From contig CAYYGX010000001.1 of NCBI GenBank assembly GCA_964471805.1, positions 5,954-51,016 of the forward strand: a DNA stretch of 45,063 bases. Reading direction: 5' to 3'. Each line of letters begins with the position of its first letter. Position 1 is the first letter of the stretch. Below are positions 6,662-45,063 of this stretch, in pieces. A model generated the notes under the pieces. The model was not told the DNA's origin and did not search any database. It worked only from the letters and a program-made list of their open reading frames with translations. Origin of the DNA: an uncultured Gammaproteobacteria bacterium (GTDB lineage: Bacteria > Patescibacteriota > Patescibacteriia > UBA9629). The position numbers were made by a program, and so were the translations under genes.

Positions 6662-6695
6662 AATGAGTTAATGCGATCAAAATTTTTCTTCTACT

Positions 6696-7916: not shown

Positions 7917-7918
7917 AT

Positions 7919-12683: not shown

Positions 12684-13511
12684 ATGGGAGATCAATTAAG
12701 CGACAGACAACTTGCTATTGCAGTATGGATGTATGAACGCCGTCTCGTTTTTGAACGAATCGTTCGCGTTTTTTTGGGCGTTTGCATGTTCGGGCTTTTT
12801 GGCGCGGTTATAATATCTACCTCCTTGTACATAAGCTGGTATAGAGCGCATCGCGTACAAATTTTTTCAAGGACACAGAATGCGATTCTATCGAGCGACC
12901 CGGCGCTTTTAGCGTCTCCCCGCTCACTCACCTCTTCAGAGGTAACGGTTCTTCTTCAAAATGAGCGGAGCGCAGACTTGTATGGTTCAATTAATAATCC
13001 AAACGCATCGTGGGCAGTTTTTTCAGTTCGTTATTATTTTACAAGCCGCGGCGCGTCGATTACAGAGCCGCGCGAAACTTTTGCGCTTCCGGGCATTAAT
13101 TCGGTTGTTGCTTTTGCAAATGGCGCAGAGCTTTCAGCGCCTTTTGAGCTCATTCTTGAAGATATAAAATGGCGTAAAATTATTTTGCCGATTGAGCGCG
13201 AGCGCCTTAAACTTTTTTCCATTGAATCGCGCGATGTCGTATTTACGCCAGGCGATGTTGAATCAGCATCTTCATCAATTTTGGCAACGCTCGTGAACAA
13301 AAGTCCGTTTGGATTTTGGAACACGCCTATTACCGCGATTCTTTATAATAACAATTCGCTTGTCGGTATAGGGGAATACACTCTTTCACAATTTGCCGCC
13401 GGCGAAGAACGCGTTGTTTCTATTGGAGTCGGAGACATCAGATTTCCGGTAACAAACATAGAGATTGTTCCGCGAGTGAATATGCTTGATGACCGTTCGC
13501 TCATGCTATGA
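12684..13511 (+). CDS. hypothetical membrane protein
   Basis: 275 aa with one TM near the N-terminus (FLGVCMFGLFGAVIISTSLYI). Its stop overlaps the start of the SEDS gene. Confidence 0.6.
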   Translation: MGDQLSDRQLAIAVWMYERRLVFERIVRVFLGVCMFGLFGAVIISTSLYISWYRAHRVQIFSRTQNAILSSDPALLASPRSLTSSEVTVLLQNERSADLYGSINNPNASWAVFSVRYYFTSRGASITEPRETFALPGINSVVAFANGAELSAPFELILEDIKWRKIILPIERERLKLFSIESRDVVFTPGDVESASSSILATLVNKSPFGFWNTPITAILYNNNSLVGIGEYTLSQFAAGEERVVSIGVGDIRFPVTNIEIVPRVNMLDDRSLML

Positions 13512-14623
13512 AACTTCCAGTTTACAGCCGTTTCCGCAATTTTGATTGTGGGATACTTATTTCCGTCATTTTTTTGATTCTCATAGGTTGCGCCACGCTT
13601 TATAGTTTAGAACTTAATAATGAAAATCCTAATTTTTCCCCGCTCCTTCGTCAAGGATCCGCCTCTGTTCTGGGGATTTTTTTATTAATAGCGGCGCTTT
13701 TTACTGATTTTCGCCACTTAAAAAGTTATGCTTATATTCTTTATGTTCTCGGGCTTATCATGCTTGCCTCTCTCCTTATTTTTGGAGTTACCATTCACGG
13801 CACCAGGGGATGGTTTGCTTTCGCTGGAATCACGTTTCAGCCGGTTGAGTTATTCAAAATATTTTTTATCATCGCGCTCGCGAAATTTTTTTCCAGTATA
13901 CGAACCATTAACGATCCGGTGAATTTGCTGAAATTAATATTATTTTTGATCGCGCCTGCGATCCTCATTCTTCTTCAGCCGGATCTCGGCGCGCTGATTA
14001 TTTTAGTTGCGATTTTTGCCGGGTATCTTTTTACGGCAAAACTGAAACGAGTATTTGTCTTATTTTTTATTTTTATAACGCTTGTCGGCATCATTGCCTC
14101 ATGGCAGTTTCTCGCGCCATACCAAAAAGATCGAATCAGCAGTTTTTTTAATCCAGACATAAACACAAAAAGTAACGCTTATAATATTACGCAGTCCAAA
14201 ATCGCGATTGGCTCCGGGCGCATGTTCGGGCGCGGGCTCGGGCTTGGGACGCAAAGTTCTCTTCATTTTCTTCCAGAGGAGGAAACAGATTTTATTTTTG
14301 CGGTCATTTCTGAATCCCTTGGTTTTGTCGGCGGCGGACTGCTTATTTTGTTGTATACTTTTCTTCTTTCAAGAATTATCTCTCTTGCAAATCGTCTAGA
14401 TGATCCATTTGGCTCTCTTATCGCTCTTGGCGTATTTTTTTGGTTTGCTTTTCAGGGATTTGCGAATATCGCGATGAATATCGGACTTCTGCCTATATTT
14501 GGCGTTCCCTTGCCTTTTGTAAGCTACGGCGGAAGTTCGCTTCTTGTCAGTATTTTTGCGATTGGCGTTTTAGAGAGCGCCGCGCTTTTTTCTCCTCAAA
14601 GAGTTAGCTCGCTCAAGAGATGA
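13508..14623 (+). CDS. SEDS-family peptidoglycan glycosyltransferase (FtsW/RodA)
   Basis: About 10 TM segments; QPDLGA.., ..EETDFIFA.., PLPFVSYGGSSLL motifs. Confidence 0.9.
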   Translation: MKLPVYSRFRNFDCGILISVIFLILIGCATLYSLELNNENPNFSPLLRQGSASVLGIFLLIAALFTDFRHLKSYAYILYVLGLIMLASLLIFGVTIHGTRGWFAFAGITFQPVELFKIFFIIALAKFFSSIRTINDPVNLLKLILFLIAPAILILLQPDLGALIILVAIFAGYLFTAKLKRVFVLFFIFITLVGIIASWQFLAPYQKDRISSFFNPDINTKSNAYNITQSKIAIGSGRMFGRGLGLGTQSSLHFLPEEETDFIFAVISESLGFVGGGLLILLYTFLLSRIISLANRLDDPFGSLIALGVFFWFAFQGFANIAMNIGLLPIFGVPLPFVSYGGSSLLVSIFAIGVLESAALFSPQRVSSLKR

Positions 14624-14664
14624 GTTTTCTTGACATTCCGCAATAATATGCTAGCTTGATTGTA

Positions 14665-15345
14665 ATGTTACAAGCAGAAATCAGACAATCAAAAAGAGGC
14701 CTTGGCGCATATCGTAGAGAAGGAAAGATTCCGGCGGTTGTGTATGGCCACGGCATCCAGTCCGTATCAGTTCTTGTGGACAAAAAAGAATTTCTGAAAC
14801 GCTTAAAATCCGAAGGGACAGGATCTCTTTTGGACCTGAAAATCGCCAGTGATGAGCCGGCAAAGGTTATTCTGCAAGATTGGCAGAAACACGCAATCAG
14901 CCAAGAGTATCTGCATTTGGATTTTTATCGCATTCGCATGGATGAAAAAATGCGTGTCAAAGTGTCGCTTATTTTTACAGGAGAGGCGCCGGCGGTTAAA
15001 ACTGGCGGCGTGCTCGTGAAAGCTAAGGATCATGTTGAAATTGAATGTCTGCCAAAAGATCTGATCTCCCGCATTGATGTTGATTTATCTCATTTATCGG
15101 AATTGCGCGCTTCTATTAAAGTGCGCGATCTCTCTGTAGGTTCAGGTATTTCTATCATTGGAAATCCGGACGATATTATTGTAACAATTGCGGAAATGAA
15201 AGAAGACATTGAAGACGCGGCGCTCGCGGCGCAAAAAGAAAAAGAACAGCTTGAAAAATTAAAAGCAGAGCCTGAAGAGAAGAAAGATGGAGAAGAGGGA
15301 AAAGAAAAGGATAAAGCCAAAGATAAAGCAAAGGAAAAGAAATAG
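14665..15345 (+). CDS. rplY: 50S ribosomal protein L25/general stress protein Ctc, with K/E-rich tail
   Basis: ..REGKIPAVVYGHG.. N-terminal domain plus Ctc-type C-domain. ATG 14665 (track ORF starts at TTG 14656). Confidence 0.9.
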   Translation: MLQAEIRQSKRGLGAYRREGKIPAVVYGHGIQSVSVLVDKKEFLKRLKSEGTGSLLDLKIASDEPAKVILQDWQKHAISQEYLHLDFYRIRMDEKMRVKVSLIFTGEAPAVKTGGVLVKAKDHVEIECLPKDLISRIDVDLSHLSELRASIKVRDLSVGSGISIIGNPDDIIVTIAEMKEDIEDAALAAQKEKEQLEKLKAEPEEKKDGEEGKEKDKAKDKAKEKK

Positions 15346-15357
15346 GAAAATTAAATG

Positions 15358-15387
15358 AAACGCTCGTTTTTTAAGCGAGCGTTTTTT
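15358..15387. terminator. bidirectional terminator-like hairpin between rplY and prmC
   Basis: AAACGCTCG-ttttttaag-CGAGCGTTTTTT. It overlaps the last codons of prmC. Confidence 0.55.
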
Positions 15388-16165
15388 GTATACCATTCCC
15401 CCTTTCGTACAAACTGTAAATCGGCGCAGAGTATATTTTTTTGAGCTTTGTTACACAGTTCTCAAGTTCGCGATAATAATAGTAATAGTCATCAGTTGGA
15501 GTTAAAAGCGCAGAACTTGGTTCGTATCCAACAATTTCCGGTTCAAGCGTTTTATATTGAGCTTGCGTGATATACGGCAAATTTGCCGCGATAATAATTG
15601 CGTCAAACTTTTTTTGCGGCGAATTAAGTATCGGTTCAATAAGATTTCCATGAAAAAATGCGATTTTGTTTTGAACTCCGTGCTGGTTTGCATTCTTGCG
15701 CGCAACATCAAGCGCCTCTATGGAAATATCCACTGCCGCATACTTGTGATCAATGATAGAGGCTTTTGCAATCGCAATGATAATACATCCAGAACCGGTT
15801 CCGACATCAATGACTGCGCATTGCCCGGATGATTTTTGAAGTATGGCAAGCGCATTTTCCACTATTTCCTCGGTTTCCGGGCGTGGAATTAAAACGCGAT
15901 CGTCAACAAAAAAGTCCAGTCCGTAAAATTCTTTTTTGCCGGTTATGTAAGCAACAGGCTCTCGCGCCGCTCTTCTTCTCACAAACGCATTATATCGGAT
16001 TACTTCCTCGTTCCTTAATTCATATTCCGGATGCGCGTACAGAAATTCACGCGGGCGATTGATCGCGGCGCTCATCAAAACTTCAGCGTCCAAAAGCGGG
16101 GATGAGATGCCTTGTATTTCCAGATAACGTTTCGCGTCTGTAAGATATTGACGGATACAATGCAT
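15371..16165 (-). CDS. prmC: release factor glutamine N5-methyltransferase
   Basis: VIDVGTGSGCI SAM motif and ANLPYI (NPPY-type) motif. Adjacent to prfA. Confidence 0.9.
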   Translation of the reverse strand: MHCIRQYLTDAKRYLEIQGISSPLLDAEVLMSAAINRPREFLYAHPEYELRNEEVIRYNAFVRRRAAREPVAYITGKKEFYGLDFFVDDRVLIPRPETEEIVENALAILQKSSGQCAVIDVGTGSGCIIIAIAKASIIDHKYAAVDISIEALDVARKNANQHGVQNKIAFFHGNLIEPILNSPQKKFDAIIIAANLPYITQAQYKTLEPEIVGYEPSSALLTPTDDYYYYYRELENCVTKLKKIYSAPIYSLYERGNGIQKTLA

Positions 16166-16186
16166 TGTGCTAGAGTGTCAATAATT

Positions 16187-16228
16187 CTTTTACTTCCCGG
16201 GGTAGTCAACATGGGAGGGAAGTAAAAG
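16187..16228. repeat. perfect 12-bp inverted repeat hairpin in the prfA-prmC spacer
   Basis: CTTTTACTTCCC-18 nt-GGGAAGTAAAAG. Confidence 0.7.
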
Positions 16229-16233
16229 AATAA

Positions 16234-16270
16234 GGGATTGCTAAAGCAGACAGCAATCCCCCTTTTTTTT
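16234..16270. terminator. terminator-like hairpin right after the prfA stop
   Basis: GGGATTGCT-aaagcagac-AGCAATCCC followed by CCTTTTTTTT on the + strand. On the minus strand it is followed by TTATTCTTTT. Confidence 0.45.
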
Positions 16271-17309
16271 ACCGCAGTTTTTCCTGAAGCGTTTTTATGA
16301 CAGCTTCTATCTCTCCATTCATAATCCGCTCAATCTGGCCCCAACTTTCTTTGATGCGGTGGTCGGTTACGCGATCTTGCGGGAAATTATATGTGCGGAT
16401 TTTTTCTGAACGATCTCCGGTGCCTATTTGTCCGCGCCGCGCGGCATCGTGTTCCTGTTTCTGCCGTTCGGTCTCTTGCGCCAAAAGGCGCGATTTCAAA
16501 ATAGTAAAAGCTCGTTCTTTATTTTGAAGTTGAGACCTCTCATCCTGGCATGACACGACAAGCCCGGTTTTAAGATGCGTGATCCGCACAGCTGAATCGG
16601 TTGTATTCACTGATTGTCCTCCGTGTCCGCTTGAGCGAAACACGTCTATTCGCACGTCCTCCGGCTTGATTTCCACTTCAAGATCTTCAGCTTTTGGTAG
16701 CACTGCGACTGTTGCTGTTGATGTATGAATTCTCCCTGATTTTTCTGTTTCCGGTATTCGCTGAACTCTATGCACGCCGCTTTCGTATTTTAATTTTGAA
16801 TACGCGTTCTCGCCCTGAATTTCAAAAATAATCTCCTTAAATCCTCCTATCCCGATGCGGTTCTCGGAAAGAGTTTTTACGCGCCAGCCCTTATCTTCCG
16901 CATATCGCGCATACATCCGGAATAAATCCGCGGAAAAAAGCGAGGACTCGTCTCCTCCAGCGGCCGCGCGAATTTCCACAATAATATCGCGTTTATCAAG
17001 CGGATCTTTCGGTTCCAGTTCTTCCAATCTACATTTGACGCTCGTAATTTGACTTTTTAGATTTTTAATTTCCTCCTCCGCGAGCTCGCGCAATTCCAGA
17101 TCTTCAGCAGATCGCTCCGTTTCCTCTGCCTGCGCGAGATGATGATTCAGCATGGCGAGTTCTTTAGTATGCGCTATTTTCTTTTTTAGATCATTATATT
17201 CAATTGTTAGCGCGCGCAATCGCGAGGAATCGCGCAAAATTTCCGGCTTTTGTATGTCAGCTTCAAGCTCATTTTGACGAATTGTAAGCTCGGTAATATC
17301 GTATTCCAT
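16269..17309 (-). CDS. prfA: peptide chain release factor 1
   Basis: GGQSVN (GGQ) and [22 protein letters not shown] (RF1-type tripeptide region, not SPF). Confidence 0.95.
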
Positions 17310-17340
17310 TCCAAGCTATACTACCATTGCGGAAGTGAAC

Positions 17341-17369
17341 TTGACAAGGTTTTGCTCTTTTGCTACATT
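17341..17369 (+). promoter_or_regulatory. sigma70-like promoter of hrcA-grpE
   Basis: TTGACA (17341-17346), 17-nt spacer, TACATT (17364-17369). Confidence 0.5.
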
Positions 17370-17394
17370 AGCAGACAAAGAGTTTGACTGCTAA
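17368..17394 (+). promoter_or_regulatory. CIRCE-like HrcA operator
   Basis: TTAGCAGAC-N9-GACTGCTAA against consensus TTAGCACTC-N9-GAGTGCTAA. It overlaps the -10 box and lies 20 nt before the hrcA ATG. Confidence 0.65.
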
Positions 17395-17413
17395 TTTTAA
17401 TGGACTAATATCT

Positions 17414-18109
17414 ATGCTGACTGACCGCCAGAGAACACTGTTAAACGCGCTAATGAATCAATATATTAAAACAGGAGAACCGATCGGTTCGGAACTCCTA
17501 GTAGAGGAGTGCAATCTTTCTGTTTCCTCCGCAACTGTAAGGAATGAAATGCTCGCGCTCGATACCCTCGGGTATCTTGAAAAACTTCATACATCGTCCG
17601 GCAGAGTTCCAACTGAAAAGGCGTATTCCTATTATGTCGCGGAGTATGCGAAAAACCAAGTGCTAAACGCCAGATACAAAGAACGCTTATCGCAACTCAT
17701 TCCAATTTCAAAACATCTAAGCTCGCGCGAAATCGTAAAAGACGTTTCACGAAACATCGCGGATATCGCGCATGAATTTATACTCACGGCTTTTGCGGAT
17801 AATGATTTTTACTACACGGGATTATCGCATCTTTTTACAAAACCGGAATACGGAGAAGCGGAGAGAATAAGAAATTTATCTGAAATCATTGATGCATTTG
17901 ACGCGACGCTAAAAGAACTATACCGCACCATTCCTGAAGAAACACATACGTTTATAGGGTCAAAAAATCCTATTGATAAAAGTTCCAGCTTAATCACAGT
18001 CCGCATCGGCGCGAACGGCCCTATTCTTGCGCTTCTTGGGCCTATGCGAATGCGGTATGATGTTAATATAGCTCTTTTAAGATATTGCCAGTCCTTATTG
18101 GCAGATTAA
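17414..18109 (+). CDS. hrcA: heat-inducible transcription repressor HrcA (short form)
   Basis: MLTDRQRTLLNALMNQYIKTGEPIGSE...SSATVRNEM..L...GYLEKLHTSSGRVPT. Confidence 0.9.
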   Translation: MLTDRQRTLLNALMNQYIKTGEPIGSELLVEECNLSVSSATVRNEMLALDTLGYLEKLHTSSGRVPTEKAYSYYVAEYAKNQVLNARYKERLSQLIPISKHLSSREIVKDVSRNIADIAHEFILTAFADNDFYYTGLSHLFTKPEYGEAERIRNLSEIIDAFDATLKELYRTIPEETHTFIGSKNPIDKSSSLITVRIGANGPILALLGPMRMRYDVNIALLRYCQSLLAD

Positions 18110-22284: not shown

Positions 22285-23430
22285 TTGGCAAAAGATTATT
22301 ACAATATATTAGCCGTCTCAAAAAACTCCTCGCAAGAGGAGATTAAAAAAGCTTTCAGAACCCTTGCTCATCAATATCATCCTGATAAAAAAAGCGGCAA
22401 TGAAACCAAGTTCAAGGAACTGAACGAGGCGTATCAGGTTTTAAGCGATCCGGAAAAACGAAAAAAATACGACGAATTTGGAGCGAGTTTTGAGCAGATG
22501 GGCGGATGGGGAGCCGCAACCGGCGGCGCTTCATGGGAGGATGTGATGAGCGCGTTTCGTCAGGGCGGCGCGCGCGCGGGCGGTAATTTCGGAGGCAATG
22601 AGTTTGCCGGATTTTCTTTTGATCTTGGCGATATTTTCAGCGAATTTTTCGGAGGCCGCGCGTCTTCTTCTAGCATGAGCGGCGCTAGTCGCTCGCGTTC
22701 ATCTCGCGGAAGGGACATTGAGATCGCAATTGAGATTGAATTTTTAGAAGCCGTAACCGGCGCGGAACGCACGCTTGAATTGAAAAAGTTTGACAAGTGC
22801 TCGCACTGCAAGGGCAATCGCGCAGAGCCAGGAACTCCTCTTATTACATGCAAGGAATGCGGGGGTAGAGGAGAGATTTCGCAAACGCGGCAAACAATTC
22901 TCGGAGTTATGCGCACAAGCGGGCAGTGCGGAAAATGCGGCGGCGAAGGCGTATTTCCGAAACTTAACTGCAAGCACTGCAACGGAGACGGCATGGAACG
23001 CGTTGCAAAAAAAATCAAAGTGAGGATTCCGGCCGGCATTCAAAACGGCGAGGCCATTCGCATAAGCGGCGAAGGCGAGATTTCGGAGAACGCGATGCGC
23101 TACGGGGATTTATATGTCGGCGTCCGCATTCGCTCGCATCATAAATTTGAGAGAGACGGCGACAACATTCACTCAAGCGAACTCATAACATTTACGCAAG
23201 CCGCGCTTGGCGATAAAATTCGCGTGGACACGGCGCACGGAAAAGTTGAGATGAAGATTCCTGTAGGGACTGCTTCCGGCACAATATTCAAATTAAAACA
23301 CAAGGGCGCGCCACGTTTGCGGGGCGGAGGAGATGGAGATCATTATGTTACAGTAAAAATTATTGTTCCTGAACGAGTGAGCGCAAAAGCGAAAAAATTA
23401 TTGCAGGAGTTGAAAGAGGAGGGATTATGA
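22285..23430 (+). CDS. dnaJ: molecular chaperone DnaJ (TTG start)
   Basis: (M)AKDYYNILAVSKNSSQEEIKKAFRTLAHQYHPDK J-domain, G/F-rich region and four CxxCxGxG zinc-finger repeats. No ATG precedes the J-domain in frame, so TTG 22285 is taken as the start. The upstream part of the track ORF (22078-22284) is non-coding leader. Confidence 0.92.
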   Translation: MAKDYYNILAVSKNSSQEEIKKAFRTLAHQYHPDKKSGNETKFKELNEAYQVLSDPEKRKKYDEFGASFEQMGGWGAATGGASWEDVMSAFRQGGARAGGNFGGNEFAGFSFDLGDIFSEFFGGRASSSSMSGASRSRSSRGRDIEIAIEIEFLEAVTGAERTLELKKFDKCSHCKGNRAEPGTPLITCKECGGRGEISQTRQTILGVMRTSGQCGKCGGEGVFPKLNCKHCNGDGMERVAKKIKVRIPAGIQNGEAIRISGEGEISENAMRYGDLYVGVRIRSHHKFERDGDNIHSSELITFTQAALGDKIRVDTAHGKVEMKIPVGTASGTIFKLKHKGAPRLRGGGDGDHYVTVKIIVPERVSAKAKKLLQELKEEGL

Positions 23431-31901: not shown

Positions 31902-32505
31902 AGAGATTTTAACCGATGCTCACATTAAACTCTTGCCGATGCTTGCGTCGTTTGCTTCTGATTTCGGATTAGTCGGTGGAACCGCGATAGCCATTCATAT
32001 AGGACATCGGCGATCAATTGACTTTGATCTTTTCACTAATAAGCCGTTTGATAACCAAAAAATAAGAAAAAAAATTCTGCAATTTGCGGCAATAGACGCG
32101 GTTATGACAGATGAAAACGAGCAATATACAATTGTTGCGGACGGAGTAAAAGTAACATTTTTGCAGTATCCTTTCAAAATTGATTTTACAGAAAAGTTGG
32201 ATGATATAATCAAATTATCTGATGTGTTAACTTTAGCCGCGATGAAAGCGTATGCCTTAGGAAGGCGGGCAAAATGGAAAGATTATGTGGATATGTATTT
32301 TATACTCAATGGTTTGCACACTTTGAAAGAGATTGTTAAAAAAGCAGAGCAGATTTTTGGCGTTGATTTTAATGAAAAATTGTTTCGCGTCCAGCTCTCG
32401 TATTTTGAAGACATAGATTATACGGAAAAAATAATGTATATGCCGGGATTTGAAACGAGCGATGCGTCTATCAAAAAAGTCTTGATAAAGTGTAGTTTGG
32501 AATAA
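31894..32505 (+). CDS. nucleotidyltransferase AbiEii/AbiGii-family toxin (type IV TA)
   Basis: GLVGGTAIAIHIGHRRSIDFDLF and ..KAYALGRRAKWKDYVDMYFIL.. motifs. Confidence 0.75.
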   Translation: MHKEILTDAHIKLLPMLASFASDFGLVGGTAIAIHIGHRRSIDFDLFTNKPFDNQKIRKKILQFAAIDAVMTDENEQYTIVADGVKVTFLQYPFKIDFTEKLDDIIKLSDVLTLAAMKAYALGRRAKWKDYVDMYFILNGLHTLKEIVKKAEQIFGVDFNEKLFRVQLSYFEDIDYTEKIMYMPGFETSDASIKKVLIKCSLE

Positions 32506-32513
32506 AAAATAGT

Positions 32514-33149
32514 ATGCCAACCATCCCCATAGAAATCTCCGCCCGCCACTGCCATCTTTCGCAAGAGGATTTAGAAAGGTTGTTTGGTAAAGGGTATGAA
32601 CTTACTCCAATAAAGCCTCTTTCCCAGCGCGCGCAATACGCGGCGCAGGAGGTAGTGGAAGTGCAAACGCCGAGCAGTTGGGGTTTGCCGCCGCACATGG
32701 ATTTTACTTTTGGAAAAGCGCCAGACCATAATCAAATGCGTATACTAGGTCCCGTGCGGGAGCGCACCCAAGTAGAACTCTCGTGGAGCGATTGCATCGC
32801 CGCCGGAATTGAACCGCGCGTTCTCGTTTCCGGCGATTGGAAAAACAGCGCGGGCGGTTTAATTTTAATCGGACCAAAGGGCGAAATAAAATTAGAGAGG
32901 GGCATTATCATTCCCCAGCGTCATATTCATTGCAATACAGAAAAAGCCCGCGAATTAAGGCTAAAGCATAGGCAGATAGTTTCAGTAAAAGTTTTAGAAG
33001 GCGATCAAAAATTCTCATTGTGCGCAATTACTTTTCATAACGTCATCATCCGCACTCACCAAACGTTTGACTGGCAGATGCATCTTAATACTGACGAAGG
33101 CAACGCCGCGGGGATTACTGGAATGGTTAAGGGAGAGATAATGATATGA
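32514..33149 (+). CDS. pduL: phosphate acyltransferase PduL
   Basis: PIEISARHCHLSQEDLERLFG and a second ..IIIPQRHIHC.. repeat typical of PduL. Confidence 0.85.
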   Translation: MPTIPIEISARHCHLSQEDLERLFGKGYELTPIKPLSQRAQYAAQEVVEVQTPSSWGLPPHMDFTFGKAPDHNQMRILGPVRERTQVELSWSDCIAAGIEPRVLVSGDWKNSAGGLILIGPKGEIKLERGIIIPQRHIHCNTEKARELRLKHRQIVSVKVLEGDQKFSLCAITFHNVIIRTHQTFDWQMHLNTDEGNAAGITGMVKGEIMI

Positions 33150-34186: not shown

Positions 34187-35941
34187 ATGCTCTACTCCAT
34201 TCTTCCCCAATCTTCAAAATCTTTTTCATTAGCAACTCCTGATCTGCATCCAATTTTACGCAGTCTTCTTTTTCAGCGGGGAATCAGAACTAAAGATGAT
34301 ATTCAAGAGTTTCTAAATCCCAGCTATGAAAATTCAGCCTATGATCCGTTCCAATTTTTGGAAATGAAAAAAACTGTAGAGCGTCTGCGCAAAGCGGCAG
34401 AATCAAATGAGAGGATTATTATTTATGGAGATTACGATGTTGACGGTGTCGCCTCTTCAATTCTCATGCTGGAAACTCTTGAAACGCTCTATAAAAAAAT
34501 CTGTCTGCCGACAAGGCAGGTTGACAAACCATCGTCAATAATCGTGTATCTTCCGCATCGCGAGGATGAGGGATACGGGCTTAACCCCGGAGCGGTTTCC
34601 TATATTAAGGAATACGGGGCGGCTCTGCTTATAACTTGCGATTGCGGCAGTGGAAACAAAGAAGAGCTTAGCGATCTGCAAAAAGCCGGTATTGATGTTA
34701 TTATTCTTGATCATCATGTCGCGCCTTTGGAGCGTCCGCCATGTTTTGCGTTTATCAATCCGAAATTTAAGAATGAAACATATCCTTGTCGCGATCTTTC
34801 AGCGGGAGGCGTTGTATTTAAAGTAATTCAGGCGCTTCGCAAGTTTGGCTATATAAGTGAATCGTTTGAGAAATGGTCGCTTGATTTAGTTGCGCTTTCC
34901 ACTGTCGCAGACATGATGCCGCTTTTGAAAGAAAATCGGGCGCTTGTTAAATGGGGGCTTATAGTTTTGAATAAAACGCGCAGAGTCGGCCTGCGGGCGC
35001 TAATTCGCAAGTCACGGCTTCAAAAAATGCTTACAACTTACGACATAAGCTACGCCCTTGCGCCTCGCATTAATGCGGCCGGGCGCCTTGATCACGCAAA
35101 TGTCGCATTTCATCTTCTGCGCCAGACAAATAAAGAGAATGCCGAACATGAAGCAATGAATCTCAATCAAACAAATGAAGCGCGTCAAAAATTCACAGAG
35201 AAAATTTCGGAAGAAGTAAAAATGCAAATACAAGAACAATATGATCGTGATGATCGGACTCTTCTTGCTTATAACCTCAAACAAAAAACATGGCCTATGG
35301 GCGTGTTGGGGCTTGTTGCCGGCAAAATCGCAAAAGAATATTATCGTCCAGTTTTTGTAATCGCGCAAACTAATCACGGCATCTCCGGTAGTTGCCGTTC
35401 TATACCGGCATTTGATCTCACAGCTTTGCTTGATGCTGTACACGATCTTTTGGAAAAATACGGCGGGCATCCGCAGGCATGCGGTTTTACGCTCAAAAAT
35501 ATGGATGATCCAGAGGCAACAATCCAGTTTTTCAAGTTAAGAATTGAGGAATATGGCAAACAGTATTTGAAAGAAAGCGATCTTCTCCAGACAATCGCTA
35601 TTTCCTCTGAACTTGCTTTTTCCGATATTACTTTAGAGTTTATAGAAGATTTGGAACGACTGGAGCCATTCGGCCAGGAAAATGCGAAACCGCTTTTTTT
35701 GACGCGCAATGTGCAAGTTCTTTCATGCAGAACAATGGGAAAGAAGAACAATCACTGTAAATTGCTTGTTTTAGCGCATGGCGCAAGATATGAAGCGGTA
35801 GTCTTTTGCGCCAAAGATCATATAAAAGCAATTACTTCAGGCGATTCCTGCGACATCATTTATAATTTGGAACAAAACGAGTGGAACGGGGAGACGAGAA
35901 TTCAGCTTATGATACGCGAGATTGTAAGCGAGTATTCCTAA
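34187..35941 (+). CDS. recJ: single-stranded-DNA-specific exonuclease RecJ
   Basis: GDYDVDGV, EGYGL, ITCDCG, LDHH, and GGH in the DHHA1 region. Confidence 0.92.
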   Translation: MLYSILPQSSKSFSLATPDLHPILRSLLFQRGIRTKDDIQEFLNPSYENSAYDPFQFLEMKKTVERLRKAAESNERIIIYGDYDVDGVASSILMLETLETLYKKICLPTRQVDKPSSIIVYLPHREDEGYGLNPGAVSYIKEYGAALLITCDCGSGNKEELSDLQKAGIDVIILDHHVAPLERPPCFAFINPKFKNETYPCRDLSAGGVVFKVIQALRKFGYISESFEKWSLDLVALSTVADMMPLLKENRALVKWGLIVLNKTRRVGLRALIRKSRLQKMLTTYDISYALAPRINAAGRLDHANVAFHLLRQTNKENAEHEAMNLNQTNEARQKFTEKISEEVKMQIQEQYDRDDRTLLAYNLKQKTWPMGVLGLVAGKIAKEYYRPVFVIAQTNHGISGSCRSIPAFDLTALLDAVHDLLEKYGGHPQACGFTLKNMDDPEATIQFFKLRIEEYGKQYLKESDLLQTIAISSELAFSDITLEFIEDLERLEPFGQENAKPLFLTRNVQVLSCRTMGKKNNHCKLLVLAHGARYEAVVFCAKDHIKAITSGDSCDIIYNLEQNEWNGETRIQLMIREIVSEYS

Positions 35942-35984
35942 GTCAGGATGGTACATTCTTCTTGATAAACTTTCGTAAAAGTAG

Positions 35985-38900
35985 CTAATTTGCCCATAAA
36001 CTCACATCAAATGAGAATCTCACGCGGCTGGGATTGTTGAAGATCAAATCTTTTGAACCGCTGGTCTCTTTGGAAGCGAGTATCCCATCGCCGGCCATGT
36101 TGGAAAAGTCAAAATACGGCTTTCCGCCATCGGTTATGCCGTCGGCATTCGCTACGGTGACAGTTGATGGGGTGATTTTTTCAATAACCATCTGCAAAGG
36201 CTGTAAGAATGGATCAGCTCCGGTGTTTTTCCATGTCGCCCTTATGGAGAATTGCCCAGTGCGGCGGTTAAATCGGACACCGGATTGAACAAGTTTACTC
36301 ACTGTTGTTACATCAGTTACTTTAAGAACATCTTTGAGTTTCATATTCTCTTTATTGCCAGCACGATCCGTTGAGAAATAAGAAATGGTTGTTATTCCCT
36401 TTTGGGTTATGTGGATTGTGTCGGAATAGAGATTCCAAGTTTGCCCGCCGTCAAGCGAGTACTCGATTTTGAGGACACCAGAATTATCATCTGTTGCGGT
36501 TAAACTTGCGGTAACGTCATCACGATAAAAATTTTCTCCATTCAACTTGGAACCATCAACTAAAATCTCGGTTATCGGCTGTGTAATGTCATTTGATTCT
36601 TCGGCATTAAGAACTGCGGACGGCTCCGCTGACGATTCAAATAACCCATCGCCGTTTTGGTCAACACTTATGGCAGTGGCACTTTGTGACTGGTCGGCGT
36701 CTATCAATATACGCGTATTAAGAGATGTCAGTGGGACTTCGTCAAAATAAAGTGCTTGCGTAACATGGTCATCTTGAATAGTTGCTATGCGTGAGTCGAA
36801 CGAACCAAGACTTGTCGCTTTGCCTGTAATAGTATACTCCAGCCCAGTGGGAAGGAATATGAATTTTCCATCATTCAAAATATAATACGCTACGCCTGGA
36901 ATATTCCTTTCTATCGTACCATCAGGCATGATGCCTGTATGTCGCCCATCTTTATCATATACATGAACCTCAATGGGGCTGAAAAAAGCTACTTCCTCGC
37001 CGTCAAATTTGCAGTTGTCCGAATCCTTGTCGTCATATCTATTATATTTATTCTCAAGCATGTCCAGAACGCTCTTATTGCCGGAAAGAACGGCGGGGAT
37101 AATCTCTAAAGAGGGCACGGAACTTGGCAGTACTCCATGTTTTGCATCCGGAATATAGAACTTTCTTTGTGCATTCAAAGAAAGGTCGTTGTCCGCACTT
37201 CGCAGAGGAACCGTGTCATCGCCGCTTATGTAGTGGAGCGCGTATCCTTTTTTAAGTTGCGTATCACGCTCCTTGATTTTGCTAAAAGTAAAAATCTGCC
37301 CGATTGTTGCGGTCTTACAGCCGACAATATTTATAGTTTCTTCTACGCCGTAATTCGCGCCGTTCCAGTTGTCTGTGGAATCATGTAGCGTTCTGTTCCA
37401 CTCGGACGCATCTCCATTTCTCCCGGCAGAAACGAGATAGCGCATTGATTGGTCATAAGAGAGCGGACCTGCTGGAATTTCAATGTTATCGCCATTGGCA
37501 AAATAATACTGATAATTTTTATAATCGAGATTGGTTGGGTTGTTTACAAAATACCTTTCACTCGGAAGAAGTTGGTATACAGACGGCATGTTTTGAGAAA
37601 CATCTTTAATTTTCACCTCAAGAAAATTGCGGGCTATATTTGATAAAAATTTCTGCCCGAGATCATCCCCCCACATAAGCGTCTTAAATGCCTTTGGCGT
37701 GCCGAGATGCGGAGTGGCAATATCTATAAATTTTCTCACCTTATCGCGACCGTTATTAGCAATATAAATTTTTGAAACAAGACCTCCTTGGCTGTGCGCG
37801 ATAATATCAACCTTATCCGCTCCTATCTCCTCAATTTTTCTCTGCAAAGAAAGCGCGGATTCAGTAATATCTAATCTCCAATCATAAGGGAATTCAAACA
37901 GGTCATCACCTTCTTTATAACCATAATTATCCACAAGCGTTTTAAATAACGATTCAAAAACATCCGCATCCTCATATTTTCTTATCATACTGGAAGCAAC
38001 CATTACATTATAATCACCCAAAAAATCTACAGTTTGGCGGGTGTGCCCATCTTCGCCAAGAGATAATTTATAGATTAGTGGTGAAATCAATGGGAATAAT
38101 ATGTCATCGCGAAGCGGAGGCCAGTACGGTTCTTGTCTCTCTATATCACCAACACCAAAGAGATAACTTCCCATAATCCCCGGCACGATGATAACCGGCA
38201 CGTTAGTAACTTGAAAAATCAACTTGTCAGTTGCCGGTATGCGCGCAGTGCCGCCTTTTCCGTCCGATGCTTCAAAATGATAGCGGTAGTCGCCTTTGGG
38301 GAACGTCATTTCAAAAGTTTGCGGGTCAATGGGTAGCATTTCCAAATTAAAATAATTCTCAAATGTTCCTTGCTTAACTTTCTCTACAATCAAGTTTACA
38401 GACGAAGGAGCATTGTTGTCTTTGTCGGTATAAATTACATCAAAATCAAAGAGTGTTTTATACGCCGTTCCTTTATTGTCGTCAATGCCGTCATTCTCCG
38501 AGAGTCCGTCGGGAGATGATTCGGGGAAGGAGAGAGTTGGCGGATTGTTTTGCGGAGCGAGGGGAGCGAGCTGATACATGTAAATATCTACGCTCGGGTT
38601 CGGGTTCTCGTTCGTTGCGGCTCCGTTGTCAGACCACACGACAGTATTTCCGGATATTTTCGGTTGCATAGAAGCTTCCGGCGCCATGCCAGTGCGGCCG
38701 GTTCTGCCTGTGGCGATATCGTAGATAAAAACGTCATACACATCAGACCACACGATTTTATTCTCAAAAATGCTTACTCCAGCCATATTGGGAACTACGG
38801 GGCTAATTATTTTTTCTTCGCCTGTGGCAATATCGTGCAACATAATATACATCCCGCCGCCACTCGCTCCACTGTTTGCCGCGCAGATAATCTTGTCACC

Positions 38901-40667
38901 ATAGATATCGAAATCTCTGATGTCTTGAAAGTTTCCGCAGAATATCAAATTTTTTTGCTTGGTTGCAATGTCATATACATAAAGTTGATTCCGCGTCCAG
39001 CTGTATTCGCTCCATAAATAAAGTATTTTGTCTCCAGAAATTTTTGGATTGCTCCAGCTCCCCGATGTATCTATAAGCGTTGTTCGAGAGTTTGAGGTAT
39101 CATACATGTAGAGACCATAAGTGCCCCCGCCGCCGGGCAATAAGGCCTCCCACACGACTCTATTACCATCAATGTCCGGCCCGCCGGGGATATGCCCCAT
39201 CTCTTGAGTAATCTTAGTTTCTGTATCTGACGCAACATCATACATGTAAATGTCGTCAAGATAGCTGATGCCGTTAGATGTGTTGCGCCATACGATTTTG
39301 TTTCCAGAGATTGCCGGGAATCCTGCCGCTGGGAACCCGGAGACGTATACTTGAGGGTTGTGAGTAATCTGCGTTTTTTCTCCCGTAGAAATACGGTACA
39401 TATAAATGTTACCGTGGATAGAACCATTGCTTTCTACCCACGCGATCGTATCTCCATCTACCGCCGGAAAGAGTGCTTGGTGCAAAAGGCTTGTATGGGT
39501 AGTGATTCTCGTCTCGGTACCGGAAAGTGAGGTCGTTGAAGAATTGAACAAAAAATAAATATCCTCTATGCCGATATCTGCGCCGGACCCACACACTTGT
39601 TCGGGATTAAAATATGGCTGAAATCCGCAAGAACGATGTGTCCAATAATCTGAATAGTAGGACCTGCCGTTTGGATAGCTATCTATATTAGATGAGCCGT
39701 AGATAGAGAACTGCCGAGAAGCATCGCCCGCATTAAGAAAAATTTCGTAATACCGGTTTGGGTTTAGAGGAAAAGACGATAAAGAACTTCCTTGCATTGT
39801 AAGCGTAACCTTGCCGTCAAAACCGCTTGGGGTAGAAGCCCCTAAATTGACAAAAGAATATTGCTCAAGAGGCGTAACGCCGTAGCCGCTCGCGTAATCA
39901 GCGGTAGGAAAACCATAGATTGTTCCTGAATAGAACGCATCCACATCCGGATTGCTCACATGAATAGTCAAATCTTTTACGCTAAAATCTAGTCCATTTC
40001 CCAATGTTTGCTGCCATATTGACATCGGAGATAAAGAGATGGCATTATCGTCTAGTTGCTGCGCCACCGTATCATTCCCAAGCCCGCTGAACACAAAGTA
40101 GAGATCTTTCACTGAGCCCATATTCTCTCTTCTTGGGGGAAAATTTTCAGTAGGTCCTCCAGCAACGTTACCGGCATAAAAAGCAAAACCTAGGGCATAC
40201 GCGGAAGCGTCAGACGATCCATAATATGTTGCAGATTTGAAATTGCCAACAAAAGCATACGGTATACCACGTTCAAATGTACGAGGTATGCCACCATGTG
40301 GAGTAAATGTTACATCTTGCTCTATACCTATGTCCGATTCGGACATCAAATAGCTATAAAGTAGGCTCGGAAGATTCTCTCCGGTATCCGATCTATAGAA
40401 ATTAAGATAGATTCGATGATCACTATTTTGTGAATAGCTATTGGCGGTGAGTTTCAAATGTAGTGTTATGAACTCTACTGTGCCAGAGACATTATCTCCG
40501 ATAATTTGCCCGAGAAAAAAATTATCACCATAAACGTTATCGATTGTCTGGCCAGCAGTATTGTTGGTTTGCTGTACATTTGCTTGTGCTGTGCCGGCAA
40601 TGATGAAAAAAGTTGAAAACGTTATTGCCGCAAAAAGAAACCCTGATTTCCGATTTAAAAAATTCAT
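35985..40667 (-). CDS. giant secreted multidomain protein: signal peptide, duplicated N-terminal module, 7-bladed beta-propeller-like repeats, Ig-like module, LCAT/PGAP1-like alpha/beta-hydrolase (lipase), beta-sandwich and OmpL47/Ig-like C-terminal modules
   Basis: Signal peptide MNFLNRKSGFLFAAITFSTFFIIAGTAQA. Seven repeats of the type ISG[ND]K[IV]VW...IYMYD[IV]ATG (aa about 395-700). VIIVPGIMGS, YDWRLD, AHSQGG (Ser959, codon 37791-37793), SGDDTVP, DAKHGVL. ..TATDDNSGVLKIEYSLDGGQTW..ISYFSTDRAGNKE. Confidence 0.9.
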   Translation of the reverse strand: MNFLNRKSGFLFAAITFSTFFIIAGTAQANVQQTNNTAGQTIDNVYGDNFFLGQIIGDNVSGTVEFITLHLKLTANSYSQNSDHRIYLNFYRSDTGENLPSLLYSYLMSESDIGIEQDVTFTPHGGIPRTFERGIPYAFVGNFKSATYYGSSDASAYALGFAFYAGNVAGGPTENFPPRRENMGSVKDLYFVFSGLGNDTVAQQLDDNAISLSPMSIWQQTLGNGLDFSVKDLTIHVSNPDVDAFYSGTIYGFPTADYASGYGVTPLEQYSFVNLGASTPSGFDGKVTLTMQGSSLSSFPLNPNRYYEIFLNAGDASRQFSIYGSSNIDSYPNGRSYYSDYWTHRSCGFQPYFNPEQVCGSGADIGIEDIYFLFNSSTTSLSGTETRITTHTSLLHQALFPAVDGDTIAWVESNGSIHGNIYMYRISTGEKTQITHNPQVYVSGFPAAGFPAISGNKIVWRNTSNGISYLDDIYMYDVASDTETKITQEMGHIPGGPDIDGNRVVWEALLPGGGGTYGLYMYDTSNSRTTLIDTSGSWSNPKISGDKILYLWSEYSWTRNQLYVYDIATKQKNLIFCGNFQDIRDFDIYGDKIICAANSGASGGGMYIMLHDIATGEEKIISPVVPNMAGVSIFENKIVWSDVYDVFIYDIATGRTGRTGMAPEASMQPKISGNTVVWSDNGAATNENPNPSVDIYMYQLAPLAPQNNPPTLSFPESSPDGLSENDGIDDNKGTAYKTLFDFDVIYTDKDNNAPSSVNLIVEKVKQGTFENYFNLEMLPIDPQTFEMTFPKGDYRYHFEASDGKGGTARIPATDKLIFQVTNVPVIIVPGIMGSYLFGVGDIERQEPYWPPLRDDILFPLISPLIYKLSLGEDGHTRQTVDFLGDYNVMVASSMIRKYEDADVFESLFKTLVDNYGYKEGDDLFEFPYDWRLDITESALSLQRKIEEIGADKVDIIAHSQGGLVSKIYIANNGRDKVRKFIDIATPHLGTPKAFKTLMWGDDLGQKFLSNIARNFLEVKIKDVSQNMPSVYQLLPSERYFVNNPTNLDYKNYQYYFANGDNIEIPAGPLSYDQSMRYLVSAGRNGDASEWNRTLHDSTDNWNGANYGVEETINIVGCKTATIGQIFTFSKIKERDTQLKKGYALHYISGDDTVPLRSADNDLSLNAQRKFYIPDAKHGVLPSSVPSLEIIPAVLSGNKSVLDMLENKYNRYDDKDSDNCKFDGEEVAFFSPIEVHVYDKDGRHTGIMPDGTIERNIPGVAYYILNDGKFIFLPTGLEYTITGKATSLGSFDSRIATIQDDHVTQALYFDEVPLTSLNTRILIDADQSQSATAISVDQNGDGLFESSAEPSAVLNAEESNDITQPITEILVDGSKLNGENFYRDDVTASLTATDDNSGVLKIEYSLDGGQTWNLYSDTIHITQKGITTISYFSTDRAGNKENMKLKDVLKVTDVTTVSKLVQSGVRFNRRTGQFSIRATWKNTGADPFLQPLQMVIEKITPSTVTVANADGITDGGKPYFDFSNMAGDGILASKETSGSKDLIFNNPSRVRFSFDVSLWAN

Positions 40668-40848
40668 AAACTTAGTCGCTTATAAGAATTTTAATGTATC
40701 AAATCCGTAGGATTAAGCAAGCCGTTTTTCATGCTTCCGCAACCACCCCTCAACTTTATTACTAACAGTAATCCCAAGGACTGCAATATGTATCTTAACT
40801 TATGCAAGTATCCTATTATAAGCGAGGATTGATCCGGACGTTTCGGGA

Positions 40849-40877
40849 TTGACAAACACATTTTGAACCGTTATACT
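40849..40877 (+). promoter_or_regulatory. sigma70-like promoter of the infA-rpmJ-rpsM... operon
   Basis: TTGACA (40849-40854), 17 nt, TATACT (40872-40877). 29-nt leader to the infA ATG. Confidence 0.55.
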
Positions 40878-44094: not shown

Positions 44095-44248
44095 TATGGA
44101 ACAAGAAAAAGAAATTCGCGGTGTGTTGATACATATCTATAACATATTACATAGATTTGTACCAACTGTGTATGATTACCCTAATCCATAAATTTAATGA
44201 ATGGTTTATATGGCTTAAATAAGCTGTATGAATTATTAAAGCCAAGTT

Positions 44249-44479
44249 ATGAAAAAAATAATTCTCGCGTTGATTTTGTTTGTCGGGTTACTTTCCTTTT
44301 CAGCTCAAGCTGAAGCGCGAACAACTGGTGTGAGAGGTTACTATAAACCATCAACCGGTCGTTATGTTGCTCCTCACTACAAGACCACGCCAAACCGAAC
44401 TAAGTTTGATAATTTTTCCACGAAAGGAAATTATAATCCATATACAGGGAAAAAGGGAAGCGTAAATCCTTATAAGTAG
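44249..44479 (+). CDS. small secreted protein (signal peptide; YxKxxGxYVxPHYxTxPxxxxxxN(F/Y)SxKGNxNPYTGKxG motif)
   Basis: MKKIILALILFVGLLSFSAQA signal, then a basic, Tyr/Pro/Gly-rich mature part. Confidence 0.6.
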   Translation: MKKIILALILFVGLLSFSAQAEARTTGVRGYYKPSTGRYVAPHYKTTPNRTKFDNFSTKGNYNPYTGKKGSVNPYK

Positions 44480-44720
44480 TAACTTGTTCTTTGGATGAAA
44501 CCTCTTATAACTTGAGAAGGTTGAGAAATGATATTGAATCGGAGCCGAGTTATTTTTATCGTGACAGGGACGATGACATCTCTTCTCGCCTAAAACAGAG
44601 TGAGTATGACACAGATGATGCATTGTCGAACATTGATGACTTTTCGTCCGAGCTTGACGATTACTAATAGGAGTTTGATGGGGAAATTTTCCTGCACATA
44701 TATGTCGTAAAAAAGTGGTT

Positions 44721-45032
44721 ATGCGACTAACACTAAAAAATATGAATAAACAAGAAATTATTTCAAAAATTGAAGACGCCCTTAAACTTAAAGAGGTATC
44801 CATTAGGAATAAAAACGCAATAGAGCAACTTATTTCAAAAATTGGTTTAGGCGAACTTTATAATATTTTTTTGGGAGTAAAGGATAAAATAGATTTTGAG
44901 CGCCAAAAACTAACTTTAGATGAAGTTTTAGAGCTTTTAGTCGCGATAGACCAACGGCTTAGCGGTTTAGAAGAAAATAAATATAGCAATAAAATTACTA
45001 TTTTACTAGATGAGGTCATCTCAAAACCCTAA
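44721..45032 (+). CDS. hypothetical helical protein
   Basis: ORF track 44715..45032 (GTG); first ATG at 44721. No family recognised. Confidence 0.4.
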   Translation: MRLTLKNMNKQEIISKIEDALKLKEVSIRNKNAIEQLISKIGLGELYNIFLGVKDKIDFERQKLTLDEVLELLVAIDQRLSGLEENKYSNKITILLDEVISKP

Positions 45033-45063
45033 TTTTCTGCTATAATACAAGCAATTAATGGGA

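Follow-up and report, generated by a model that had tools for sequence, protein, structure and literature searches.

A propeller-borne LCAT/LPLA2-family hydrolase as a candidate exported phospholipase A or acyltransferase of a Jacksonbacteria-like bacterium

What use might a Candidate Phyla Radiation (CPR) bacterium have for a very large exported protein that couples a beta-propeller to a lipase-like domain? The question is raised by contig CAYYGX010000001.1 (assembly GCA_964471805.1), of which positions 5,954 to 51,016 of the forward strand, a stretch of 45,063 nucleotides, form the window to which all positions below refer unless another locus is named. Between 35985 and 40667 the window holds one ATG-start open reading frame (ORF) of 1560 residues (aa) plus a stop codon, intact over its 1560 codons. 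The original prediction for this ORF, a secreted propeller-lipase fusion with a possible part in lipid scavenging, was given without a strand; we place it on the minus strand, and every peptide that the prediction quoted is present at the expected position. Our answer comes in two parts of different strength. The hydrolase belongs genuinely to the known LCAT/LPLA2 family, of which it is a new and divergent bacterial member. As for the whole protein, with slightly better than even confidence we read it as an accessory, Sec-exported, two-part phospholipase A or acyltransferase, acting at the surface or extracellularly in an ultra-small, Jacksonbacteria-like CPR bacterium from groundwater and aimed at foreign membranes.

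The hydrolase and the domains that follow it

The protein divides into the following segments, given with the codons of the putative catalytic triad:

40581..40667, minus strand: predicted signal peptide, aa 1-29 (MNFLNRKSGFLFAAITFSTFFIIAGTAQA/N, the slash marking cleavage), the sole segment with Kyte-Doolittle hydropathy above 1.6
40068..40580, minus strand: module A1, aa 30-200, an orphan and divergent copy of A2
39513..40067, minus strand: module A2, aa 201-385, an orphan conserved domain (WQQTLGNGLDF ... FPLNPNRYY ... DIYFLF)
38523..39512, minus strand: seven-bladed beta-propeller of TIGR04275-type repeats, aa 386-715
38214..38522, minus strand: Ig-like or beta-sandwich linker unit, aa 716-818
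37083..38213, minus strand: LCAT/LPLA2-family alpha/beta hydrolase, aa 819-1195
37791..37793, minus strand: codon of the Ser959 nucleophile (AHSQGG)
37218..37220, minus strand: codon of Asp1150 (SGDDTVP), aligned to GDGTV of LPLA2
37137..37139, minus strand: codon of His1177 (DAKHGVL), aligned to SEHIEM of LPLA2
36588..37082, minus strand: beta-sandwich always found 3' of the hydrolase, aa 1196-1360 (SPxxxxxYDxxGRHTG)
36318..36587, minus strand: OmpL47-type beta-barrel or Ig-like domain, aa 1361-1450
35988..36317, minus strand: C-terminal domain with no family assignment, aa 1451-1560

The peptides by which these segments can be recognised lie as follows:

aa 26-30: TAQA/N, landmark of signal-peptide cleavage
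aa 188-195: DLYFVFSG, end motif of module A1
aa 369-376: DIYFLFNS, end motif of module A2
aa 742-756: FDVIYTDKDNNAPSS, quoted earlier for the Ig-like unit
aa 792-803: GDYRYHFEASDG, likewise quoted for the Ig-like unit
aa 825-834: VIIVPGIMGS, oxyanion region of the hydrolase
aa 928-933: YDWRLD, hydrolase landmark
aa 957-962: AHSQGG, nucleophile motif with Ser959
aa 1148-1154: SGDDTVP, motif of Asp1150
aa 1174-1180: DAKHGVL, motif of His1177
aa 1393-1411: DDNSGVLKIEYSLDGGQTW, quoted earlier for the OmpL47/Ig-like unit
aa 1432-1440: STDRAGNKE, OmpL47/Ig-like unit

The Pfam LCAT family (PF02450) matches aa 901-1062 with E 1.2e-17 and 64.7 bits (gathering cut-off 21), a single-sequence match spanning only profile positions 66-242 of 392. 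Two further alpha/beta-hydrolase families that overlap this match, DUF676 and PGAP1, narrowly exceed their Pfam cut-offs. Used singly, the hydrolase sequence finds LPLA2 with E 1e-6; a profile of 40 homologues aligns with residues 5-377 of the 380 in LPLA2 (4x90) at E 4.4e-24, taking in regions outside the core fold. In this register PGImGS, AHSmGG, GDgTVP and the catalytic His of the hydrolase stand opposite PGDLGN, AHSMGN, GDGTVN and SEHIEM of LPLA2. The entry for the LPLA2 S165A mutant (4x92) provides an internal check of the register, since its Ala falls exactly in the column of Ser959, which is aligned to Ser165; the remaining triad members of LPLA2 we take to be Asp327 and His359, only Ser165 having been verified in the alignment.

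Conservation follows the same pattern. Among the 40 sequences (hydrolase residue numbers being alignment positions plus 714), H958, S959, G961 and G962 of the H-S-x-G-G motif are invariant, and conservation reaches at least 90% in P829-G830-I831, Y928-D-W-R931, G1149-D1150-x-T-V-P1154 and H1177. Counted apart from the triad and the oxyanion region, some 30 hydrolase positions are invariant or pass the 90% level. Together with the family scores, the aligned and conserved Ser959, Asp1150 and His1177, all three in register with LPLA2, bear out the earlier proposal of an LCAT-type hydrolase with an apparently complete triad.

AlphaFold modelled aa 715-1560 with a mean predicted local distance difference test score (pLDDT) of 74.5 and a predicted template modelling (TM) score of 0.72, the hydrolase lying mostly above a pLDDT of 85. 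When the model was compared with the PDB by Foldseek, the top match was again LPLA2 (E 6.5e-17; TM 0.72, normalised to LPLA2; 417 aligned columns), followed by LCAT (TM 0.66-0.68), by Tle4 of Pseudomonas aeruginosa (4r1d; TM 0.44) and then by BlEst2 and Legionella PlaB.

The lower ranks of these lists bear on one alternative, a general extracellular lipase or esterase for neutral lipids, wax, polyesters such as polyhydroxybutyrate (PHB) or detrital lipids, whose propeller and sandwiches would bind substrate or particles. The Foldseek and profile matches do include BlEst2, lipases of Archaeoglobus fulgidus, Burkholderia and Pseudomonas, and PHB depolymerases, 'alpha/beta hydrolases' encoded on Bacillus cereus plasmids likewise have a beta-sandwich C-terminal to the hydrolase, and no host-related neighbour genes were found. 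However, these matches are far weaker than those to LPLA2 and LCAT and fall mostly on the nucleophile elbow (profile ~180-245; TM 0.2-0.6), whereas the LPLA2 chain is matched in its whole length, regions outside the core fold included, and we hold this alternative to be quite unlikely. BlEst2 (Bacillus licheniformis, 6wpx), the A. fulgidus lipase (2zyr) and the B. cereus plasmid hydrolases do share the plan of a lipase core with a C-terminal beta-sandwich; they differ from the 1560-aa protein in lacking propeller and module A and, with TM 0.2-0.4 and 26% identity, represent a different lipase lineage. Were the protein an ordinary lipase after all, the finding would shrink to a rare domain architecture.

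LPLA2 (PLA2G15; 4x90) and LCAT (4x96, 5txf) thus belong to the same family as the hydrolase by Pfam, by an end-to-end profile alignment and by the best TM of 0.72, but the 1560-aa protein is bacterial (CPR), multidomain and exported, shares only ~17-20% identity with them and carries a dedicated beta-sandwich and an OmpL47-type domain after the hydrolase. The eukaryotic enzymes have a lid or membrane-binding region stapled by disulfides, a trait that does not define the family. Cysteines occur in the 1560-aa protein only at positions 347, 359, 577, 595, 1117 and 1219; as none falls within aa 819-1116, a disulfide-stapled lid of this kind cannot be conserved.

When aa 819-1207 were used as a separate query, ~270 relatives of the hydrolase came up. 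The nearest, at 35-45% identity, are proteins of ~600 aa labelled Patescibacteria, Parcubacteria, Paceibacterota or Minisyncoccales, and the remoter ones include Chloroflexota proteins and fusions to FHA domains. Stand-alone Patescibacteria proteins of this size (P0024-P0031, P0044 and P0047) combine the LCAT domain with the beta-sandwich and in part with the OmpL47-type domain, so that alignment extends in some from aa 824 to ~1450; several have signal peptides, but none contains module A, a propeller or the Ig-like unit, and their gene neighbourhoods are unrelated. The beta-sandwich, modelled mostly above a pLDDT of 85, is co-conserved with the LCAT domain both in these proteins and in the Bacillus cereus plasmid hydrolases. 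LCAT and beta-sandwich cassettes spread across Patescibacteria, alone or on a propeller scaffold, amount to a defined protein family, which may matter more than the 1560-aa gene by itself.

The suggestion that the beta-sandwich modules include an OmpL47/Ig-like unit agrees with a match to NF047446 at aa 1382-1443 (66.7 bits; cut-off 40). The equivalog model for the whole Leptospira OmpL47 protein, NF047441, scores 36 bits against a cut-off of 250 and was rejected. The C-terminal domain (aa 1451-1560) was modelled with a pLDDT below 50; its only relatives are P0002 (84% identity), which is discussed below, and a 130-aa fragment, P0179, the single match to a search with the last 118 aa. Like module A and the Ig-like unit, this tail has no match in Pfam, NCBIfam, PHROG or PDB-sequence searches.

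The N-terminal scaffold and the mosaic history of the protein

The predicted Sec-type signal peptide, with cleavage placed after AQA, shows features typical of one: R6 and K7 form the n-region, aa 9-25 are hydrophobic, A27-Q-A29 provides the cleavage site, and aa 8-29 are the sole hydrophobic segment of the protein. These features are kept across the family, whose N-terminus can be written MNxxN[QRP]KS[RG]F[LI]F...AQA/xVQQT[DN][DN]xA and was found in P0004, P0005, P0007, P0176, P0177 and P0178. The same signal peptide also heads other large proteins without module A, P0178 among them. Conservation continues upstream of the start codon:

40668..40692, minus strand: 5' leader shared with the homologues, AAGCG[AG]C occupying -14 to -8
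40581-40692, minus strand: conserved signal peptide plus leader, with counterparts at 4482-4551 of L001, 1829-1881 of L002 and 8-60 of L003

In these three homologous loci, leader and first ~15 codons are 83-84% identical to the window at the DNA level, although the proteins are only 35-64% identical overall. It follows that the N-termini of the homologues P0002 and P0003 were called truncated; counted from the conserved ATG, the ORF of L002 has 1321 aa. Signal peptide and leader may together constitute a lineage-specific export or sorting signal, or else an element of translation initiation.

An AAGCG motif had been placed directly before the ATG, but its actual position is -14 to -10. The motif is kept upstream of the three homologous genes in L001, L002 and L003. 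As a window-wide upstream motif AAGCG was rejected, being found at 4 of 40 genes against 3.3 expected, with 10 occurrences of TAAGCGA against 9.2 expected. A longer form, TA(T/A)AAGCG, precedes three gene starts by 12 to 14 nt, at 12684, 18718 and 40667 (CTATAAGCGCTATACTT-ATG, TTATTAAGCGCTGTACTT-TTG and CTTATAAGCGACTAAGTTT-ATG), in a window where the motif count overall is no higher than chance; if it serves as a -10-like box, as it may, the leaders would be very short. A promoter scan found no canonical sigma-70 promoter upstream of the 1560-aa gene, and a terminator scan found no intrinsic terminator between it and recJ.

The two copies of a ~180-aa module proposed for the N-terminus share motifs at their starts (VQQTNNTA in A1, AQQLDDNA in A2) and ends (DLYFVF, DIYFLF); that they are copies of one another is otherwise a weaker case, A1 and A2 matching by BLASTP along 53 residues with only E = 0.054. 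When 1.84 billion representative proteins were searched exhaustively with phmmer, only 8 matched module A at E <= 0.001. Module A2 has 48 invariant columns among 8 sequences, and A1 has as its sole relative the fragment P0176 (76% identity). AlphaFold gave no usable fold for the pair (aa 28-400, 8-sequence alignment; mean pLDDT 36.6).

The seven propeller blades read from the sequence are all in place, with motifs of the [IV]xG[DN][KRT][IV][IV]W type beginning at aa 403, 453, 499, 543, 588, 633 and 671 and spaced by 38-50 aa. The NCBIfam beta-propeller repeat TIGR04275 matches in six stretches with 94.8 bits against a cut-off of 85. The TolB equivalog TIGR02800, at 31.2 bits against a cut-off of 343, was rejected, its likeness being only that of a generic propeller. 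Elsewhere, propellers of the TIGR04275 type are joined to extracellular proteases and to adhesion domains, with PKD, cadherin and GLUG domains among the partners (P0009-P0022). The Ig-like module that follows has the beta-strands expected of it in the AlphaFold model (pLDDT 60-74) but no Pfam match to name it by.

The union of this propeller with an LCAT domain is rare. Among 5.8 billion protein clusters it occurs only in P0002 (64% identity; Rifle groundwater) and P0003 (35% identity; 0.1-µm fraction of Hainich groundwater), and we found three other loci in all. A near-identical copy of P0003/L002 lies on a contig labelled Candidatus Saccharibacteria, the sole locus to come from a scan of GTDB genomes; that scan used patterns of module A only and is therefore silent on the distribution of the LCAT cassette. 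The protein is not of a common, already characterised S-layer or adhesin type, which would have spoken against the original prediction. Compared part by part with its two full-architecture relatives, the protein shows uneven conservation:

A2: 71% identity to P0002, 56% to P0003
Propeller: 45% identity to P0002, 43% to P0003
Ig-like unit: 47% identity to P0002, 58% to P0003
LCAT domain: 83% identity to P0002, 32% to P0003
Beta-sandwich: 73% identity to P0002, 25% to P0003
OmpL47-type domain: 80% identity to P0002, 30% to P0003
C-terminal tail: 84% identity to P0002, 21% to P0003

As these alignments show, the binding half and the catalytic half behave as two cassettes with separate histories, a pattern of modular recombination. 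The contrast between 45% identity to P0002 in the propeller and 83% in the LCAT domain would fit a binding part whose changes follow those of its targets. A second group of proteins (P0004-P0008 and P0177, one of them named Candidatus Tagabacteria) has the same signal peptide and, with 42-49% identity across aa ~203-714, the same A2 and propeller, but differs in cargo, with PKD repeats or DUF5011/Ig-like domains and no LCAT cassette. In P0006, a protein annotated as containing DUF5011, a very weak Abhydrolase_1 match (E 0.09) falls at aa 643-737, after the Ig-like domain; a second, different hydrolase cargo on the module-A/propeller scaffold is possible there. What is new and unusual in the window, then, is the fusion of a propeller and an orphan module under a lineage-specific signal peptide, with cassette-wise recombination and a clean presence/absence polymorphism.

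Uneven conservation also bears on whether the protein could be mainly an adhesin or surface fibre, with a hydrolase that is inactive or vestigial, or the product of a decaying gene. Non-catalytic modules rich in beta-strands make up about 75% of it, the 5' end of the L001 homologue appears to be frameshifted, and giant surface proteins to which a part in attachment is ascribed abound in CPR genomes (PMC8080830). Such a reading would nevertheless sit badly with a hydrolase that is among the parts best conserved against P0002 (83% identity) and in which the triad, the oxyanion region and ~30 other positions are invariant or reach 90% conservation across the 40 homologues, and with an ORF that is intact in the window, and we consider it extremely improbable.

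A proposed role at foreign membranes

As a rule, Patescibacteria/CPR are unable to synthesise membrane lipids of their own; lipidomics showed CPR-rich cell fractions to be enriched in lysolipids, for which phospholipase A was named as a possible source (PMC7242380). For Vampirococcus, a secreted phospholipase has been put forward as a means of acquiring lipids from the host (PMC8080830), and surface phospholipases were proposed to compromise host envelopes in work that describes the mechanisms of lipid uptake and breakdown as unidentified (PMC11665869). A CPR-secreted phospholipase acting on host membranes is therefore a reasonable reading whose concept is already in the literature (PMC8080830, PMC11665869, PMC7242380). 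Among the CPR and Patescibacteria papers that a combined search of our library listed, LCAT is not mentioned; for a bacterial secreted LCAT-like phospholipase the one match found was a review of host-directed therapy. Because exported enzymes of the LCAT/LPLA2 family make lysolipid and fatty acid or move acyl chains, the protein is a concrete, testable candidate, one that can be assayed, for an acknowledged gap in CPR lipid biology, its functional assignments being inferential.

From the domain layout and homologies we infer export, signal-peptide cleavage, catalysis, the lipid substrate, the target cell and the purpose of the protein, in a scheme that would run as follows. After Sec export and cleavage following Ala29, aa 30-818 (the two A modules, propeller and Ig-like unit) would act as a targeting scaffold that presumably binds the target surface, and aa 819-1560 as a catalytic cassette made up of hydrolase, beta-sandwich, OmpL47-type domain and tail. 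The enzyme would then dock on a lipid interface, where the beta-sandwich that always follows the hydrolase may assist the LCAT-type domain. By homology with LPLA2, LCAT and Tle4, the acyl ester of a glycerophospholipid would be attacked through an acyl-Ser959 intermediate. If water resolves this intermediate, the result would be phospholipase A activity, yielding lysolipid and fatty acid; if an acceptor alcohol does so instead, transacylation would take place. Since the enzyme would be extracellular, its likely substrates are the membranes or lipids of host or neighbouring cells, and the products could feed a lipid-dependent CPR cell, damage the target envelope, or both. The lipid-scavenging role that had been put forward is plausible. 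A fuller version, in which the protein is the outward part of a CPR lipid-harvesting route, the scaffold reading the host envelope and the LCAT domain yielding lysolipids and fatty acids for CPR membranes, we would give only a slim chance. If it held, it would explain in molecular terms why CPR membranes are, as reported, rich in lysolipids, and a fast-evolving, recombining scaffold together with strain-specific gain and loss would encode host range.

Damage to the target could also be the purpose itself. Tle4, also called TplE, is a related alpha/beta hydrolase (profile E 3.1e-19, Foldseek E 1.8e-10) and a bacterial enzyme used outside the cytoplasm of its producer against the membranes of other cells (PMC6099711). 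Our protein might likewise be an offensive toxin, a contact-dependent or diffusible phospholipase that lyses or permeabilises host or competitor cells and for which nutrition is at most a by-product. Next to LPLA2 and LCAT, Tle4 is the best match of bacterial origin both by structure and by profile; TplE acts as a phospholipase A1 and as a lipase and poisons bacteria from within their periplasm (PMC6099711); and a strain-variable gene with a fast-evolving binding half is typical of genes of antagonism. Tle4, however, is delivered by a type VI secretion system, is paired with the immunity protein Tli4 and has no propeller scaffold, whereas the 1560-aa gene encodes a predicted Sec-type signal peptide, has recJ and infA with ribosomal genes as neighbours, and is linked to no VgrG/PAAR or immunity gene. 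No immunity gene lies beside it, this ORF being all that the 4.9-kb insert holds, nor are there secretion genes of the type VI kind, export being apparently by Sec, and the TM to Tle4 reaches only 0.44 as against 0.72 to LPLA2. Such a toxin seems unlikely to us, although sequence alone does not separate it from scavenging.

A number of observations weigh against a phospholipase A or acyltransferase directed at foreign membranes. Enzymes of the LCAT fold also act on neutral lipids and other esters. The gene is not conserved in close relatives: on the six related contigs that encode RecJ with at least 90% identity, infA follows recJ after ~75 bp in 6 of 6 and the 1560-aa gene is absent, and a search of the 5.8 billion clusters found no further close homologue from these six relatives. 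A gene absent at the syntenic site of six relatives is dispensable for the lineage, and this strain variability argues against an essential lipid-harvesting function. No immunity gene, lipid-uptake gene or conserved operon partner was found near the gene or its relatives, and no lipid or transport partner genes are conserved around P0002, P0003, P0025, P0027 and P0050. The absence of a recognisable anchor noted earlier is confirmed, in that the protein has neither a C-terminal transmembrane segment nor an LPXTG motif, and Pfam and NCBIfam searches found no SLH or other anchor family in it. Finally, in L001, the closest homologue, the signal peptide and an A1-like start (4442-4813) are out of frame with the main ORF of 1464 aa (4743-9137), which is due either to a frameshift, making it a pseudogene, or to an assembly error.

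The same facts bear on an acyltransferase that remodels the envelope of its own producer by acyl transfer among its lipids, lipoproteins or glycolipids. Besides hydrolysis, LCAT and LPLA2 also catalyse transacylation, and the window encodes a lipid head-group enzyme, a CDP-alcohol phosphatidyltransferase (PF01066; 4189-4908, minus strand). A housekeeping role of this sort is hard to square with the absence of the gene from six close relatives, as it is with a large and fast-diverging propeller scaffold, and we regard it as very unlikely. The PF01066 gene means that the organism keeps at least one phospholipid head-group enzyme, which bears on lipid-salvage scenarios too.

The strain-specific segment and its surroundings

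The supposition of a CPR origin is supported by S11, S13, RecJ and RpoA of the window: in the clusters to which they belong, drawn at no less than 90% identity, the named proteins come from Candidatus Jacksonbacteria or 'Parcubacteria group bacterium GW2011_GWC2_44_17'. The organism is thus closely related to Candidatus Jacksonbacteria. As had been described, the 1560-aa gene diverges from the ribosomal operon (infA-rpsM-rpsK-rpoA-rplQ-rplM-rpsI); it is convergent with recJ. The six related contigs have in common the order gltX, M23 peptidase, trxB, AbiEii, PTAC, ackA, recJ, infA and rpsM onward, and comparison with them delimits the following features:

35925..40845, no strand: strain-specific segment of 4,921 bp, replacing 25 bp of the six related contigs (blastn)
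40849..40877, plus strand: strong infA promoter of sigma-70 type (TTGACA-17-TATACT), intact and 3 nt outside the segment
35921..35936, plus strand: left junction repeat ATTGTAAGCGAGTATT, overlapping the last recJ codons
40815..40830, plus strand: right junction repeat ATTATAAGCGAGGATT, its imperfect 16-nt partner

The segment has the 1560-aa ORF as its sole gene, and its flanks are 86-93% identical to the relatives by blastn. Its GC content (0.43) and GC content at third codon positions (0.42) are similar to those of the flanking genes. The last recJ codons differ (EIVSEYS-stop versus ELERV-stop). The two junction repeats agree in 13 of 16 positions; as ~1% of random pairs of 60-nt windows agree equally well, they are suggestive only as a trace of the indel mechanism; the junction sequence of the relatives is not the product of a clean single-repeat deletion. 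TTRTAAGCGA occurs at both junctions, with an inverted copy 14 nt upstream of the ATG of the gene (40673-40685, minus strand), and might serve in recombination, as an operator or as a -10-like element. A mobile-element origin was considered and set aside: no integrase or transposase was found in the segment, the 1560-aa protein has no phage match, and its plasmid matches cover only the LCAT cassette, at no more than 28% identity. Anti-phage defence models gave no match. Set against six near-identical gene orders, the indel offers a natural presence/absence contrast for studies of ecology and host association.

The syntenic block varies elsewhere as well. A gene of 425 aa with no known function lies between AbiEii and PTAC in 6 of 6 relatives (5047-6339 in L004) and is missing from the window (32505-32514), a second indel. 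Soon after rpsI, all six relatives (L004-L009, ~13400-17500) have a Cas12a/Cpf1 gene of 1177-1352 aa with REC1, Cpf1_PI-like and RuvC_1 domains. Homology of the window to the six relatives ends at 44128, so that the locus downstream of rpsI also varies between strains, and the last 0.9 kb (44129-45063) has no Pfam match.

Further upstream, at 23427-25076 on the plus strand, an ORF of 549 aa combines a WecG/TagA glycosyltransferase (aa 66-234), a NUDIX domain (aa 297-417) and DUF5674 (aa 433-540). A tRNA-Gly(CCC) gene lies inside it at 24247-24321, between the WecG and NUDIX parts, so that we see here either genes that overlap in an unusual way or a run of two or three genes that no stop codon separates.

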